A stretch of 64,000 nt of DNA from Escherichia phage vB_EcoM_CRJP21. The notes under the pieces were generated by a model. It made no database searches and was not told the origin of the DNA. It was given only the letters and a program-made list of their open reading frames with translations. The position numbers were made by a program, and so were the translations under genes. Of the stretch, positions 15,897-25,062 are shown in pieces. Numbering within the stretch: position 1 is the stretch's first letter; the number at the start of each line of letters is the position of its first letter. The stretch is from sequence record OQ708376.1. One strand, given 5' to 3'.

Positions 15897-16592
15897 ATGG
15901 TTGAACAATTCATGTTTGGTGGTTATGCTAATGGCGAAGTACGTAACATTTCTATTCCTTACGTAGTTGAGAAAGTTAATGGTTCAGAACGTACATATGA
16001 TCTAGCATCTCGTATGATGCAAGACCGTATCATTTTCCTTGATACTGATTTCAATGATCAAATGGCACATATCATCAAACAACAATTGGTATGGTTAGAC
16101 TCACAAGGTGATTCCCCTATTACATTCTACATTAGTTCACCGGGTGGTTCAGTACACGCAGGTTTGGGTATTGCAGATGTTGCTAAGTCTTGTATTTCCC
16201 CAATTCGCACTGTAGTTATGGGTTATGCAGCATCAATGGGTTGCTATACACAATCTGTTATTGGGACTAAAGGTTTCCGTTTAGGTGGTAAACGCTCATA
16301 CTTCATGTGTCACCAAGTAAGTTCTGGTACACAAGGTCTAATTACAGACCAGAAGATTTCCCTACAACATTCTGATGCACTGAATACATTGTTGACCAAA
16401 GAAATTGCAGAAGCTGTAGGTGTATCACATGAACAATTACTAAAAGATGCTGACCGCGATTTGTGGTTAAATGCAGAAGAAGCACTTGAATATGGTGAAC
16501 ATGGTTTCATTGATGGTATTATTCTTGGACCACGTAACGAAGAAGGTAAGTACTTAGTTAAGCGTCGCGGCGGTGTAGAAGAGTGGGTGTAA
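15897..16592 (+). CDS. ClpP-like serine peptidase
   Basis: ISSPGGSV, catalytic Ser in GYAASMGCY and His in MCHQ aligned to ClpP. Confidence 0.75.
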   Translation: MVEQFMFGGYANGEVRNISIPYVVEKVNGSERTYDLASRMMQDRIIFLDTDFNDQMAHIIKQQLVWLDSQGDSPITFYISSPGGSVHAGLGIADVAKSCISPIRTVVMGYAASMGCYTQSVIGTKGFRLGGKRSYFMCHQVSSGTQGLITDQKISLQHSDALNTLLTKEIAEAVGVSHEQLLKDADRDLWLNAEEALEYGEHGFIDGIILGPRNEEGKYLVKRRGGVEEWV

Positions 16593-19836: not shown

Positions 19837-19871
19837 TTATATCTTCCTAAACAAAATTGAGGACTTGTTAT

Positions 19872-20480
19872 ATGAAAAGACTATGGCTTGAAGTGATACA
19901 AGCAGCGATGTTTCTATTGTTAATAAATTTTCCAGCCAGTGCTGGTATTGAAAGTAAAAATGTGATAAAGTATAATCCTGAAACCCGAAATGTATATTTC
20001 ATATCAGATATTACAGATGGGTCACTCAAGAGAATGATAGAGTTGTATGATAAAGAACACTATGATACCATCACAATTACATCTCCTGGTGGTGATTTTG
20101 ATGCAGGTATTCGAATGGCAAACTTTGTTAGAGACAATGGGATAAATTTAATTGTTTCTAGGTATTGCAATTCAGCATGTACTGTGGTATTCTTTAGTGT
20201 ATCTCCCGAAAAGCGATATATGACAAATCGCTCAGTACTGGGTCTTCATAACATTTCGATTAAAAGTAATGTTACTGATGGTGATAATTCATTTGTGTCT
20301 GTAAGACAGCTATCAACTTTTACCGAAGAAATGGCAACAAAGGTAGGTTTCCTTTTTTCACTATATGCAGCAAATGGAATCCCACCAGAAGTTCTATTTA
20401 GAGTTAGTCGTTCTCGTGGTGAAGATGTTGTAATATTAACAAAACCAGAACTGGTTTTTTACGGTTCAGTCAAACAATAA
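19872..20480 (+). CDS. secreted ClpP-fold serine peptidase-like protein
   Basis: signal peptide MKRLWLEVIQAAMFLLLINFPASA; ITSPGGDFDAG aligned to ClpP SPGG region. Confidence 0.5.
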   Translation: MKRLWLEVIQAAMFLLLINFPASAGIESKNVIKYNPETRNVYFISDITDGSLKRMIELYDKEHYDTITITSPGGDFDAGIRMANFVRDNGINLIVSRYCNSACTVVFFSVSPEKRYMTNRSVLGLHNISIKSNVTDGDNSFVSVRQLSTFTEEMATKVGFLFSLYAANGIPPEVLFRVSRSRGEDVVILTKPELVFYGSVKQ

Positions 20481-20550: not shown

Positions 20551-20811
20551 ATGACAAACATCCAAAACTTGACATCTATTATTTTTTATGCTACTGTAGT
20601 AATGTATGCTACAGTTATTTTTCTAACAGTTTTCATTTACAAAGATTATCGTAATGGCTTTATTGATCCAACTACAATGAAGTTCAATTCAAAATTCGAA
20701 GCAATAATTTATTATGTACTATCAACTTCATACTTGGTGTGCCTAATGTTGTTAGGAGCACTAATTTATATCTTATACACAACATTATTTGCAATTGGAG
20801 CTATTTTATGA
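20551..20811 (+). CDS. small membrane protein
   Basis: two long hydrophobic segments. Confidence 0.45.
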   Translation: MTNIQNLTSIIFYATVVMYATVIFLTVFIYKDYRNGFIDPTTMKFNSKFEAIIYYVLSTSYLVCLMLLGALIYILYTTLFAIGAIL

Positions 20812-21401
20812 CCTGTATTATTGCACACACTGACGGAGTAAGTTCTTTTATTGCTGGGGATAAGTTAGGAAGCAATGGATTTACAAAAACTGTTCAAACT
20901 GAGCCAAAGGTATTCGAGAAAGAATTTATCAAGTTACATGATGATGGACTAACTAGAACTAAAGAAGTAATGGCATTGGGTTATACTACATCATTTCGTA
21001 TGGGTCAGTTGTTAAATTATAACCTTAATTTACCTGAACAAGATGCTAGTCAAACATTTTCACAATATTTGGTTCTTAAAGTTATTCCAATCATTCGTCA
21101 AATGTTTAAAGAAGAATGGGGTGCACGAGATGCATCACAAGATGTAGGTGGTGGACAATTTATCATTCTCCACAATCATACAATCTATGAAGTTCAAGAA
21201 GACTTTTCAGTACTACAACCTAAAACAAGAATTACCGCAGTAGGTAGTGGGACATATCATGCAATTGCAGCAATGCAAGCATATATTGAAGTTGAGAACG
21301 AATCTAAAAAACCACTACACGAACGTATCAAATCAATTTTTAAAATTGTTAGTGATAATGTAACAAGCGTAAGCGAAGAGTTTGATGTTTTAAAATATTA
21401 A
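20808..21401 (+). CDS. HslV / proteasome beta-like Ntn peptidase
   Basis: ATG 20808 gives MTCIIAHTDG (Thr at position 2 as in HslV); FIAGDKLGSNG and TAVGSGTYHAIAAMQA parallel HslV. Confidence 0.55.
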   Translation: MTCIIAHTDGVSSFIAGDKLGSNGFTKTVQTEPKVFEKEFIKLHDDGLTRTKEVMALGYTTSFRMGQLLNYNLNLPEQDASQTFSQYLVLKVIPIIRQMFKEEWGARDASQDVGGGQFIILHNHTIYEVQEDFSVLQPKTRITAVGSGTYHAIAAMQAYIEVENESKKPLHERIKSIFKIVSDNVTSVSEEFDVLKY

Positions 21402-21428: not shown

Positions 21429-21623
21429 ATGATGGCATACACAATTTATGAATGGGTTTTGAGTTTTTTTATAGTTTTTTCTATTGTTGTAATTTATAAC
21501 AATGCTAAATGCTTATATAGGGACTTGAAATCCAATGGTTATCACAAAGATAATAATTTTATGTATGCCTATCATATTGGAATCATTCTGTTATTATCAA
21601 TATATTTAATTGTTTTTTTATAA
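21429..21623 (+). CDS. small membrane protein
   Basis: 64 aa, hydrophobic. Confidence 0.4.
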   Translation: MMAYTIYEWVLSFFIVFSIVVIYNNAKCLYRDLKSNGYHKDNNFMYAYHIGIILLLSIYLIVFL

Positions 21624-21632
21624 GGATTGAAT

Positions 21633-22385
21633 ATGATATCAGAAAAATTTATAAGCAATGAAGGTAAAAAGCGATTACTGATTATATCAGGTGCAGGACT
21701 TTCTGTTGAAAGTGGTATGGAACCTTTTCGATTTGATGATGGTTTGTGGGATACATTTAAAATTAATGATGTATGTAACATTGCTAGTTTAACTACGAAA
21801 TATCACGTTGTTCATTCCTTCTATAATACATTACGTGTAAAATTGGGTCAATGCAAACCCAATGCAATGCATTATTTTATAAAATCGTTAGAAGATCAAT
21901 ATGGTGATTGCTTCCTTCATATGACTTCTAACATGGACGATCTTTATACTCGTATTGGTGGTCATGAGCTTAAACTTCATGGAAACTTGTGCGAAGTTAT
22001 TGAAAATTATAGTATCAATTCCGATGATTATAATGTTATTAACTGCGGATACGAACCATACATACCAAAACATGATGTTTTTGCCAAACCAAATGTAGTA
22101 ATGATTGGAGAATATCATCGTTATGTTGATGGTATTCGCTTACCAATTTACGAAGAACGAAATAATGTGTTGAAATCTCTTAATGAAAATGATACAGTTA
22201 TTGTAATTGGTAGTAGCGATACAGTACTGGTATGGTCGAGATTAGCAGCAGCATTACCATGTTATAGTGTTAATGTTAACATTCGTAAAAATGATAATGA
22301 TTTTTTGTTTAATGAAAAAGTTATCAAGCCAGCAACCAAAGCAATACCGCATCTAGAGACTATAATTAAGGAACGTATGAAATGA
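21633..22385 (+). CDS. Sir2-family (sirtuin/CobB-like) NAD-dependent enzyme
   Basis: GAGLSVESGMEPFR, HMTSNMDDL, catalytic LHGNL, VVMIGE, VIGSSDTV; lacks canonical CxxC zinc tetrad. Confidence 0.75.
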   Translation: MISEKFISNEGKKRLLIISGAGLSVESGMEPFRFDDGLWDTFKINDVCNIASLTTKYHVVHSFYNTLRVKLGQCKPNAMHYFIKSLEDQYGDCFLHMTSNMDDLYTRIGGHELKLHGNLCEVIENYSINSDDYNVINCGYEPYIPKHDVFAKPNVVMIGEYHRYVDGIRLPIYEERNNVLKSLNENDTVIVIGSSDTVLVWSRLAAALPCYSVNVNIRKNDNDFLFNEKVIKPATKAIPHLETIIKERMK

Positions 22386-22933
22386 GTGTTAAAGAAGTTC
22401 CCTTTGGTGAATATGGCACACGTGCAAATTTTGTATTTTGTTATTTCTTTGCAAGAAAATGCAACCCTTACAAAAACTATGAGTTGAATGATATACCAGA
22501 AGTAAATTTAGTATTACTGCAATTACGATGGGATGGTCTTCTTGGTGGATGTGGTGGAACCGTAGAAAGTACTGATATCTCACTAGAAGATGCGTTGCGT
22601 CGTGAAGTTCAAGAAGAAATGGATTACAATATTTTTGTTTCCCATCTTCGACCACTCAAAACTTTTGAAATTTACCCAGGTGCAAACAGTCACAGTTTTA
22701 GCTATGAAGTAACCTATGACGAGTTGAAACACATTAGAGATGGATACACTAATGCTAAACATGCAAGTGCAGAAGTTGCTGGTGTAAATTTATGTCATAT
22801 TTCGCGTTATTCTAAGGGACAAAATCGAGAAGCGGGATATAATAATCTTATGACACAGAACTTCATCGGTACAGCAAAACAAGAATTGGAGTATCTGGTT
22901 CAAAAAGAAAACTTACTAATTAGTTATCTATAG
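22382..22933 (+). CDS. Nudix-like hydrolase (divergent Nudix box)
   Basis: GGTVESTDISLEDALRREVQEEMDY approximates GX5EX7REUXEEXGU with a 3-residue insertion. Confidence 0.4.
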   Translation: MSVKEVPFGEYGTRANFVFCYFFARKCNPYKNYELNDIPEVNLVLLQLRWDGLLGGCGGTVESTDISLEDALRREVQEEMDYNIFVSHLRPLKTFEIYPGANSHSFSYEVTYDELKHIRDGYTNAKHASAEVAGVNLCHISRYSKGQNREAGYNNLMTQNFIGTAKQELEYLVQKENLLISYL

Positions 22934-22942
22934 GAGTTTAAC

Positions 22943-23263
22943 ATGTCTTACTCAATGTTTTTGGATGATATTCGTGATGCAAATCTATATTATCCAAACC
23001 AAGATATGGTGGTATGTCGTGACTTTAAAAGTGCATGTGAATATGTTATTGAAAATGGAATTCCAGCATTTGTATCATTCGACCATGACTTGGGTGATGT
23101 GAGCGAAGACGAAAAGACTGGATATTCTTTTGCTAAGTTTCTTATTGATTATATGTTTGATAATAATATTAAAGAACCGTTTGAGTACTTTGTTCACAGT
23201 AGTAATCCTGTTGGTAAAATTAATATTGAAACATACTTAAACAATGGATTTAACTCATTATGA
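22943..23263 (+). CDS. hypothetical protein
   Basis: 106-aa ORF. Confidence 0.45.
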   Translation: MSYSMFLDDIRDANLYYPNQDMVVCRDFKSACEYVIENGIPAFVSFDHDLGDVSEDEKTGYSFAKFLIDYMFDNNIKEPFEYFVHSSNPVGKINIETYLNNGFNSL

Positions 23264-23562
23264 TTCAAACACACATCAAAAGTCTTATTTGTACTGTTCT
23301 GTTAGGTGCAGGAGTTCTTTGGTTCGGACAGTATCACGAGAACACTAAGCGTACCAACATTCACTACAATACCGCAGAAGTTGTTAGTTTAGGACAATGT
23401 AGCGAGTCCAAATGTTCATTTATGTATAAAACCCAAAGTGGTGAAGTACGTAATGGACTATCAAGAGAACCAGTTTCAATTGGTCAACTTGTTTACCAGG
23501 AGTGCTGGGAAGAAAAGGTTCGAGGTTCACGTTGCTATGTTGAATACGAACCAAATATGTAA
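23260..23562 (+). CDS. membrane-anchored hypothetical protein
   Basis: N-terminal TM LICTVLLGAGVLWFGQY. Confidence 0.45.
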   Translation: MIQTHIKSLICTVLLGAGVLWFGQYHENTKRTNIHYNTAEVVSLGQCSESKCSFMYKTQSGEVRNGLSREPVSIGQLVYQECWEEKVRGSRCYVEYEPNM

Positions 23563-23622
23563 TAATCCGAGTCAATAACATTAGTCGAGTACAAGGATGT
23601 ACTCATAACTCAAGGATGTTTT

Positions 23623-25062
23623 ATGAAAAAATATACAATTGACACAAACGTACTACTATCTGACCCTAATGCATCTATTGCTTTTGATGGTGCTGCAATC
23701 ATTCTACCATTTACAGTACTGGAAGAATTGGATTCAATTAAGAGTCGTAATGTAGATGTTTCACGCGATGCTCGTGTTGCTATTCGTAACATTGAAGCAA
23801 TTATTGCAGATGCATCACATGATGAGATTAGTAGTACTGGTGTTAATATTGCTGATGTTCATACCAATATGAATCCTGATAGCAAATTGTTTGTTATTAC
23901 AAACGAAGAAGCTGAAGCACTAATTCGTACTAAAGGTTCAGAAGAGAAAGTTCAAACCCTTCTCAAAAGCACAGTACCTGATGATAAAATCATTCTGGTA
24001 GCTTTAGCAACAGAATCAGTACTGGTAACTCGTGATATCAACATGCGTATCAAAGCACTAAGTTATGGTGTCGAGGTACAAGATTATCGCCATGATATTG
24101 TTATTGGTGATAGTGATTTGATTCACATTGGTCAACACCATTTGGAAATTAATTTTTGGGAAGTATATAGCAACTTATCCAATACTAATATTCAATCCGA
24201 ACAAGTTGGTCGTCGTTTGTATCATTACATTTCTAAAAGCTTGATTGAACATTTGCTTCCACAAAATCTATGCATCGGTGATTATCTATATGATGATGCA
24301 GACGTATTATTTGTGTACGAAGGTCAATCAGCAATTGAGGAAGATGATGGAACACTAACACCAGAAGATATTTTGGTATTCCAAGATATTGGACAATCAG
24401 TAGCTTTACGTGCTAAAGTATGGGATATTAAAGCAAAGAATATCCAACAAGCACTCGCCATCAACAGTATTCTCGATCCTGATGTACATCTAACAGTACT
24501 GCTAGGTTCTGCTGGTACTGGTAAAACACTAATTACGATTGCTACTGCATTAGAATTAGTACTGGAAAAACGTAAATACGACCGAATCATCTTCTCTAAA
24601 ACTCAAGACTCACAGTTTGAAGATATTGGTTTCTTGCCAGGTTCAGAAGCAGAAAAAGTGATTCCATTCTGTGGAGCCGCAATTGACGCGTTAGAGTTTC
24701 TTCATAAAGATGATGCTAACCCTCAAGGTAGTATTGAAGAGATTATGAAACGTAATGTTATTCAATTTAAAGCACTAAACTTTGTACGTGGACGTTCATT
24801 CACCAACACTATTCTAGTAGTTGATGAATTCCAAAACATTACACCTGCACAAGCTAAAACAATCTTGACACGAGCAGGATTAAACTGTAAAGTAGTAATT
24901 ATGGGTAACTTGAGTCAGATTGACAGTAAGTTTATTAGTCCTGTTAACAGTGGTTTGACATATGTAACTGAGAAGTTTAAAGATTGGGCAGGTTGTCGTG
25001 TCATCGAACTAGAAGGTGTTGTTCGTTCACCACTTGCAGAATTTGCTGAAGAAAATATGTAA
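23623..25062 (+). CDS. phoH: PIN-domain + PhoH-like ATPase
   Basis: N-terminal PIN (IDTNVLL), Walker A GSAGTGKTL, Walker B VVDEFQN. Confidence 0.8.
   Translation: MKKYTIDTNVLLSDPNASIAFDGAAIILPFTVLEELDSIKSRNVDVSRDARVAIRNIEAIIADASHDEISSTGVNIADVHTNMNPDSKLFVITNEEAEALIRTKGSEEKVQTLLKSTVPDDKIILVALATESVLVTRDINMRIKALSYGVEVQDYRHDIVIGDSDLIHIGQHHLEINFWEVYSNLSNTNIQSEQVGRRLYHYISKSLIEHLLPQNLCIGDYLYDDADVLFVYEGQSAIEEDDGTLTPEDILVFQDIGQSVALRAKVWDIKAKNIQQALAINSILDPDVHLTVLLGSAGTGKTLITIATALELVLEKRKYDRIIFSKTQDSQFEDIGFLPGSEAEKVIPFCGAAIDALEFLHKDDANPQGSIEEIMKRNVIQFKALNFVRGRSFTNTILVVDEFQNITPAQAKTILTRAGLNCKVVIMGNLSQIDSKFISPVNSGLTYVTEKFKDWAGCRVIELEGVVRSPLAEFAEENM

Follow-up and report, generated by a model that had tools for sequence, protein, structure and literature searches.

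Enzymes of the proteasome family share a catalytic set made of Thr1, Asp17, Lys33 and Gly47 (PMC8665760). In HslV, the pore linker between helix 2 and strand 7 (H2-S7) is very short and is accompanied by a basic cluster (Arg86, Arg89 and Lys90) that responds to HslU (PMC5777263), and the pocket that receives the C-terminal tail of HslU is formed by Phe54, Phe57, Lys80 and Gln114 (PMC6429459). BPH, the Betaproteobacteria proteasome homologue, has no partner ATPase, carries a long acidic pore loop, is heptameric and does not bind HslU (PMC5777263). The proteasome homologues of phages were catalogued by Fuchs, Alva and Lupas in 2021, and three of them, PPH, AAH and CPH, make up a phage-associated "group I" that radiates from BPH and HslV (PMC8665760). 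AAH is compact, with helices H1-H4, no propeptide and neither S12 nor H5, and it occurs in Alphaproteobacteria, Actinobacteria, Firmicutes, Bacteroidetes and many phages (PMC8665760). Connectase (MJ0548), a protein ligase of proteasome fold, has a specificity-determining insertion at S3/S4 and is missing the first helix pair (PMC8665760). We analyzed a stretch of 64,000 nucleotides from Escherichia phage vB_EcoM_CRJP21 (sequence record OQ708376.1), hereafter the window, in which the open reading frame (ORF) at 20808-21401 codes for a protein of 197 residues. Sequence comparisons and a structural model support the view that this protein is a proteasome/HslV-like N-terminal nucleophile (Ntn) hydrolase with a predicted complete active site.

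The phage belongs to the Asteriusvirus group of jumbo myoviruses, with genomes of ~350 kb. Over the compared part, the window matches Escherichia phage vB_EcoM_E9.1 at 100% identity, and PBECO4, phAPEC6, G17 and others at 99% or more.

Gene, catalytic residues and predicted fold

The ORF is a real gene and not a chance reading frame, because it matches PHROG 1040 ("peptidase HslV family", E 4e-24), has 76 database homologues and reaches 8,401 representative clusters at E<=1e-3. When called mechanically, the frame on the + strand runs from GTG 20739 to the TAA stop at 21399-21401. The true start is instead ATG 20808, because a GGAG motif lies 7 nucleotides upstream, the start codon overlaps the preceding stop codon as ATGA, and 204 of 217 homologues begin with MTC. 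The product starts with MTCIIAHTDG, and its sequence includes MTCIIAHTDGVSSFIAGDKLGSNG and, further on, TAVGSGTYHAIAAMQA; the start codon, N-terminus and internal segments quoted in the first-pass annotation were all found exactly as it gave them. The ATGA overlap suggests translational coupling with the upstream ORF. In a scan for promoters and terminators, the promoter count equalled that expected from shuffled sequence.

When the protein was searched as a single sequence, Pfam returned only a sub-threshold match to connectase (PF09894, E 0.088, 12.8 bits vs. a cut-off of 26.8) and no match to PF00227, and phmmer ranked recoverin noise above HslV in the PDB (E ~1). A family profile built from an alignment of 40 homologues (A1) retrieved HslV chains from the PDB at E 1e-7, followed by actinobacterial and archaeal proteasome beta subunits (E ~3e-4 to 2e-3) and BPH (E 3e-3). 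Aligned to E. coli HslV with hhalign, the family gave a probability of 94.5% and E 8e-8, with Thr1, Asp17, Lys33, Gly45 and the GSG motif in register.

We followed conservation in A1 and in an extended set of 217 divergent representatives, the most distant of which share ~26% identity. The columns M1, T2, C3, D18, K34, G146, G148 and V188 are invariant in A1. In the extended set T2, D18, K34 and G146 are each present in all 217 sequences, G148 in 215 and G58 in 214. Because 204 of these relatives begin literally with MTC, the family has no propeptide. Gly58, like HslV Gly45, corresponds to the Gly47 oxyanion-hole position of proteasome-family numbering, and it opens a signature in which T60 (210/217), S62 (213/217), R64 (212/217) and Q67 (207/217) are near-invariant, family-specific polar residues beside the oxyanion-hole glycine. 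The family is further marked by an invariant Cys after Thr1 and by near-invariant G116 and V188. The correspondence of the G-S-G motif was drawn from the HslV alignments. The sequence features of the MEROPS T1 superfamily are found here: a Thr directly after Met1, the Asp17/Lys33 pair, the oxyanion Gly and the GSG loop. One bacterial homologue, from the metagenome-assembled genome of an uncultured bacterium (locus L113, 4001-4573), begins with MSC and represents a Ser1 nucleophile variant, as reported for some BPH subfamilies.

The AlphaFold2 model of the monomer (predicted local distance difference test, pLDDT, 93.1; predicted template modelling score, pTM, 0.89) has its strands and helices in the expected order and forms an alpha-beta-beta-alpha sandwich with helices H1-H4. 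The first-pass annotation had proposed a proteasome/HslV-like Ntn hydrolase, a reading that homologues without the N-terminal Thr or a fold of another type would contradict. What we found is the Thr in every one of the 217 relatives, together with Asp18 and Lys34, and a model that, with the HslV profile and hhalign matches, gives an Ntn fold; the invariant catalytic residues, the HslV profile matches and the fold thus support this core reading.

The coordinates of the gene and of its main features are listed in Table 1. The 14-residue insertion lengthens the beta-hairpin that joins the Lys33 strand to the strand of the Gly47 equivalent (modelled strands 35-43 and 50-59). The segment from K34 to G58 counts 25 residues here and in 38 of the 217 relatives, and 11 residues in 157 of them. 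No second proteasome-like paralogue is present in the window.

Table 1. Features of the proteasome-like gene and its immediate surroundings (positions in the window; residue numbers count Met as 1 unless noted).
Feature	Position	Strand	Basis or remark
Shine-Dalgarno-like GGAG, 7 nucleotides 5' of ATG 20808	20797..20800	+	direct sequence reading
Coding sequence of the predicted proteasome-like Ntn hydrolase, 197 residues plus TAA stop	20808..21401	+	identical to phAPEC6 gp345c and vB_EcoM_E9.1 CDS0233
ATGA: start codon shares bases with the TGA that ends the small hydrophobic ORF before it (20551-20811)	20808..20811	+	
Codon for Thr2, predicted N-terminal nucleophile (Thr1 after Met removal)	20811..20813	+	217/217; aligns with E. 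coli HslV Thr1
Codon for Asp18 (Asp17 in proteasome numbering)	20859..20861	+	217/217; aligns with HslV AGD motif
Codon for Lys34 (Lys33 in proteasome numbering)	20907..20909	+	217/217; aligns with HslV Lys33
Clade-specific 14-residue insertion KEFIKLHDDGLTRT (residues 38-51)	20919..20960	+	family-profile alignment
Family signature G58-Y-T-T-S-F-R-M-G-Q67	20979..21008	+	Gly58 aligns with HslV Gly45
Loop from helix 2 to the next strand, "pore loop" position in HslV and BPH (residues 104-117, EEWGARDASQDVGG)	21117..21158	+	secondary structure; pLDDT 76-84
Codons for G146-S147-G148 (Gly128-Ser129-Gly130 in proteasome numbering)	21243..21251	+	aligns with HslV GSG

Relation to HslV, BPH and the group I homologues

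On its profile scores, the protein is HslV-like and not an HslV orthologue. It reaches 19.9 bits with the NCBIfam HslV equivalog NF003964 (cut-off 137) and 18.9 bits with TIGR03692 (cut-off 157.75), compared with 302 and 288 bits, respectively, for E. coli HslV as a control. It shares with HslV the Thr right after the initiator Met, a length of ~175-200 residues, the absence of a C-terminal helix 5 and the same catalytic positions. It differs by an identity of only ~17%, the absence of a co-encoded HslU, the invariant Cys after Thr1 and the GYTTSFRMGQ signature, and a long acidic loop replaces the short linker and basic cluster of HslV. For this putative pore loop (residues 103-117, EWGARDASQDVGGGQ here), the medians across the family are 15 residues in length and -2 in net charge.

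The resemblance to BPH (PDB 5OVS/5OVU) is one of features only, namely no propeptide, no known partner unfoldase and an elongated acidic pore loop. The sequence relation to BPH (profile E 3e-3) is weaker than that to HslV, the family falls outside the BPH sequence cluster, and its range is a different one, covering phages, Alphaproteobacteria, Polyangiaceae and others. By sequence, the 197-residue protein falls into a sister family of HslV and BPH that is very large and rich in phage members.

The compact H1-H4 architecture, the lack of a propeptide and the lack of a conserved genomic context or ATPase are shared with group I as a whole, and the occurrence in Caudovirales, Alphaproteobacteria and Firmicutes is shared with AAH; no Actinobacteria were found among the best 80 genome loci. 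Judged from the published description, the family is probably the AAH of Fuchs, Alva and Lupas (2021), whose representative is WP_035979212. Its size, at 50% identity, is far above the 240 AAH sequences reported in 2021. We rejected an identity with PPH, which is ~140 residues long and has no helix 2; the protein studied here has 197 residues with helix 2 at residues 84-103, and the PPH/RPC-like protein 4L372D_229 scores just 12 bits against the family profile. In Aeromonas phage 4L372D itself (locus L004, 5001-6454), a 183-residue family member adjoins this second type of homologue, a PPH/RPC-like protein of 294 residues (VTTIAYKNG...) that has both an acidic linker and a C-terminal tail and clearly represents a separate lineage. 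The Salmonella jumbo phage pSal-SNUABM-04 has also been reported to carry two HslV-like genes (PMC7823757).

Family range and genomic setting

The exhaustive profile search that yielded the 8,401 clusters (50% identity, E<=1e-3) retains 6,061 at E<=1e-10, and nearly all of them match from residue 1. Among sequenced phages, tblastn detected the family in 196 records, which include the T5-like Epseptimavirus and relatives, Asteriusvirus, and phages of Aeromonas, Vibrio, Xanthomonas, Geobacillus, Moorella and others. In BFVD, 36 viral structure clusters share the fold. The cellular carriers are nearly every Azospirillum, other Alphaproteobacteria, Polyangiaceae, Chloroflexota, bacteria of the candidate phyla radiation and some Firmicutes. 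The chromosomal copies of Azospirillum (loci L100-L163) lie near a glutamyl-tRNA-synthetase-like gene and an NAD (nicotinamide adenine dinucleotide) synthetase and not in prophage. Because they sit among housekeeping genes, we regard this as a resident gene in Azospirillum, where it may serve as a cellular model of what the phage enzymes do.

Some family members are longer (255-388 residues; P0082, P0111 and P0112, and also P0083, P0093, P0096 and P0097) and have an additional, highly acidic linker of low complexity. In P0082, P0111 and P0112 the linker runs into a short C-terminal motif that is conserved, ...K(Y/F)PHNIG..KLR.KI..., and the unrelated PPH/RPC-like protein of the Aeromonas phage (L004, 5570-6454) terminates in a similar tail, IKHKPSNTYKQLAKKI. 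No Pfam domain was detected in the C-terminal extensions of the long members. The shared tail may be a docking or nucleic-acid-binding module.

To describe the neighbourhood of the gene, ORFs were clustered from 80 viral and 80 bacterial loci, and spurious antisense ORFs in the high-GC Azospirillum loci were ignored. No recurrent partner gene emerged, with no neighbour family present in more than 11 of the 80 viral loci, and no linked ATPase was found in the 80 bacterial loci. The 2021 survey agrees, describing group I homologues as lacking a conserved genomic context or ATPase (PMC8665760). In the window, the neighbours are a dCMP deaminase, a DNA ligase, Sir2, Nudix, PIN-PhoH and an anaerobic ribonucleotide reductase. 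Those in the T5-like phage Eps7 are thymidylate synthase, dihydrofolate reductase, ribonucleotide reductase and RNase H, and the copy of the Aeromonas phage likewise lies among nucleotide-metabolism and not morphogenesis genes. Mass spectrometry of phAPEC6 virions (62 proteins) did not detect the identical gp345c, although the neighbouring products gp347 and gp341c (PhoH-like) were found. The absence from virions and the nucleotide-metabolism neighbours together argue for an intracellular role, beside early/middle metabolic and host-takeover genes, rather than one in morphogenesis.

Small hydrophobic ORFs without a family match flank the gene on both sides (20551-20811 and 21429-21623, both on the + strand), and in Eps7 a small "membrane protein" gene (L003, 4594-4902) is found just 5' of that phage's own family copy. 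These flanking ORFs may be a coincidence or a loosely conserved pairing. Directly 3' lies a co-directional cassette (21627-25062, + strand), which comprises Sir2 (21627-22385), a Nudt16-like Nudix protein (22382-22933) whose ORF overlaps the Sir2 stop, a cREC_REC "cyclic-phosphate processing receiver" (22943-23263), a small ORF and PIN-PhoH (23623-25062). It looks like a module for NAD/ADP-ribose or RNA-end processing.

Two ClpP-like genes had been noted nearby by the first-pass annotation, and this description fits one of them better than the other. The ORF at 15897-16592 (+ strand), located in a non-structural region, is a full-length ClpP homologue (PF00574, E 4e-41). In GenBank and PHROG it carries the label "head maturation protease", though phAPEC6 has a separate prohead protease, gp227c, and it may be a phage ClpP working with host ClpX or ClpA. 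The ORF at 19857-20480 (+ strand; also taken as 19872-20480) is only weakly ClpP-like, with a sub-threshold Pfam match (E 0.004, 17.5 bits vs. a cut-off of 20.2) and a narrow PHROG, 26024 ("protease"). Its hydrophobic N-terminus resembles a signal peptide, and the product may be a secreted or membrane-anchored serine peptidase of ClpP/SppA type.

Proposed action and alternatives

With moderate confidence, we favor a gene for a catalytically competent, propeptide-free threonine Ntn hydrolase of the proteasome/HslV superfamily, group I. E. coli HslV itself starts with (M)TTIVSV; Thr1 is the first residue of the mature protein, and Thr is among the residues that methionine aminopeptidase tolerates at position 2. 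In the phage protein, host methionine aminopeptidase would similarly remove Met1 and leave Thr as residue 1. The Thr1 hydroxyl, activated via the free amino group and the Lys33/Asp17 pair, would then attack a peptide (amide) bond, in an active site presumably completed by the Gly47-equivalent Gly58 and the G-S-G loop. By analogy with HslV and BPH, its nearest relatives in structure, the protein probably self-assembles into a ring-shaped homo-oligomer with internal active sites and, as proposed for BPH, probably needs no dedicated ATPase. It would be expressed together with the early/middle genes for nucleotide metabolism and host takeover, and would act within infected cells rather than in virions. 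Its substrates could be unfolded polypeptides or a restricted set defined by T60, S62, R64 and Q67, a conserved polar cluster that suggests a defined substrate preference.

Several points weigh against this proposal. Besides the AAH assignment having been made by description, position 147, the equivalent of Ser129, is Ser in only 118 of the 217 representatives and Cys in 83. The polar residues beside the oxyanion-hole glycine could also indicate a non-generic substrate, possibly not a protein. Our literature search for experiments on phage HslV-like proteins returned annotation-level mentions only. Finally, BPH, the closest structural relative, showed neither an obvious activity nor a partner in vitro (PMC5777263), and for this reason an ATP-independent peptidase is itself an unproven model.

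The same polar residues, near-invariant and family-specific, would also fit a substrate-specific Ntn amidase or transpeptidase, acting as a connectase-like small oligomer or monomer and not as a bulk protease. Such an enzyme might cut or ligate one defined protein, for example a host regulator or a defence component, or act on a small-molecule amide. The wider Ntn clan holds many non-protease amidases, and the clade insertion lies near the S3/S4 specificity site of connectase (PMC8665760). The phage protein and connectase have in common the Thr1 Ntn core and an insertion placed in roughly the same region, close to the Lys33 strand. However, both helix pairs (H1-H4), which are partly missing in connectase, are kept here, and the insertion is a beta-hairpin and not a helical lid, and is missing from most of the family. 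We consider a specific amidase unlikely. An identity with connectase itself we rejected, given the PF09894 score (12.8 vs. 26.8 bits), the presence of H1 and H2, and a hairpin in place of the helical S3/S4 lid.

Slightly less probable still, in our estimation, is the idea that HslV-like hexameric rings dock on host HslU, compete with or replace host HslV, and redirect ATP-dependent degradation. The first-pass annotation had stated that no HslU-like ATPase is adjacent to the gene, which holds for the entire 64-kb window, and had raised a hijacking of host HslU on that basis. Any HslU-like match is found in only four Escherichia phage records, whereas the Escherichia records that belong to the Asteriusvirus group number at least 29, so this group has no HslU of its own. 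The named gammaproteobacterial and Firmicutes hosts do carry HslUV, with hslVU present in E. coli, and in the hhalign alignment the near-invariant F63 stands opposite Phe54 of the HslU-tail pocket of HslV (PMC6429459). The helix 1/helix 2 region that forms this pocket aligns at low confidence, however, and Phe57 of the pocket faces G66. The protein also falls far short of the HslV equivalog (19.9 vs. 137 bits), its pore loop is long and acidic in contrast to the short linker and Arg86/Arg89/Lys90 cluster of HslV, and BPH, which is structurally as similar, is heptameric and does not bind HslU. The hairpin insertion of this clade, missing from most of the family, and the bacterial members without ATPase linkage, such as those of Azospirillum, also count against docking on HslU. 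We found no support for the hijacking idea, and some features argue against it.

A morphogenetic protease, acting in the prohead or in virion maturation, might be expected from how common head-maturation proteases are in phages and from the two further protease-like genes within 5.5 kb. We rejected it on the phAPEC6 virion proteomics and hold it to be very improbable: the protein was not detected in virions, the head module of phAPEC6 codes for a separate "prohead core scaffold and protease" (gp227c), nucleotide-metabolism genes surround the gene in several unrelated phage types, and Azospirillum has resident chromosomal copies. A catalytically dead structural relic comparable to the proteasome alpha subunit, for which nothing specific speaks beyond the general precedent of inactive proteasome-family subunits, is just as hard to credit when Thr1, Asp17, Lys33 and the glycine motifs are kept across 217 sequences down to ~26% identity, with the Thr directly after Met.

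At the level of the family, the finding is correct but known, and it adds nothing new in annotation. The label "HslV family peptidase" or "peptidase HslV family" is already attached to the gene in E9.1, JP4, PBECO4 (RefSeq) and 121Q, and the missing phage HslU has been remarked on in the literature for another jumbo phage; public records or papers thus cover the gene, the name of its family and the fact that phages have proteasome homologues without HslU. What makes it of moderate interest is the question of function, as raised by an intact active site, more than 8,000 clusters, carriage by T5-like, jumbo and other phages, and a resident gene in Azospirillum. One speculative role, to which we give a low probability, is that of an early-infection weapon that selectively destroys host defence or regulatory proteins, either as a lone ATP-independent barrel or attached to an unfoldase of the host, such as HslU. 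If true, this would give the proteasome family its first viral member of defined function and would account for its carriage by thousands of phage lineages. The coliphage member described here, which is tractable, or the copy of Eps7 and other T5-like phages, would be a reasonable entry point to the role of viral proteasome-like enzymes, and could show whether a proteasome relative free of an unfoldase is an active protease.

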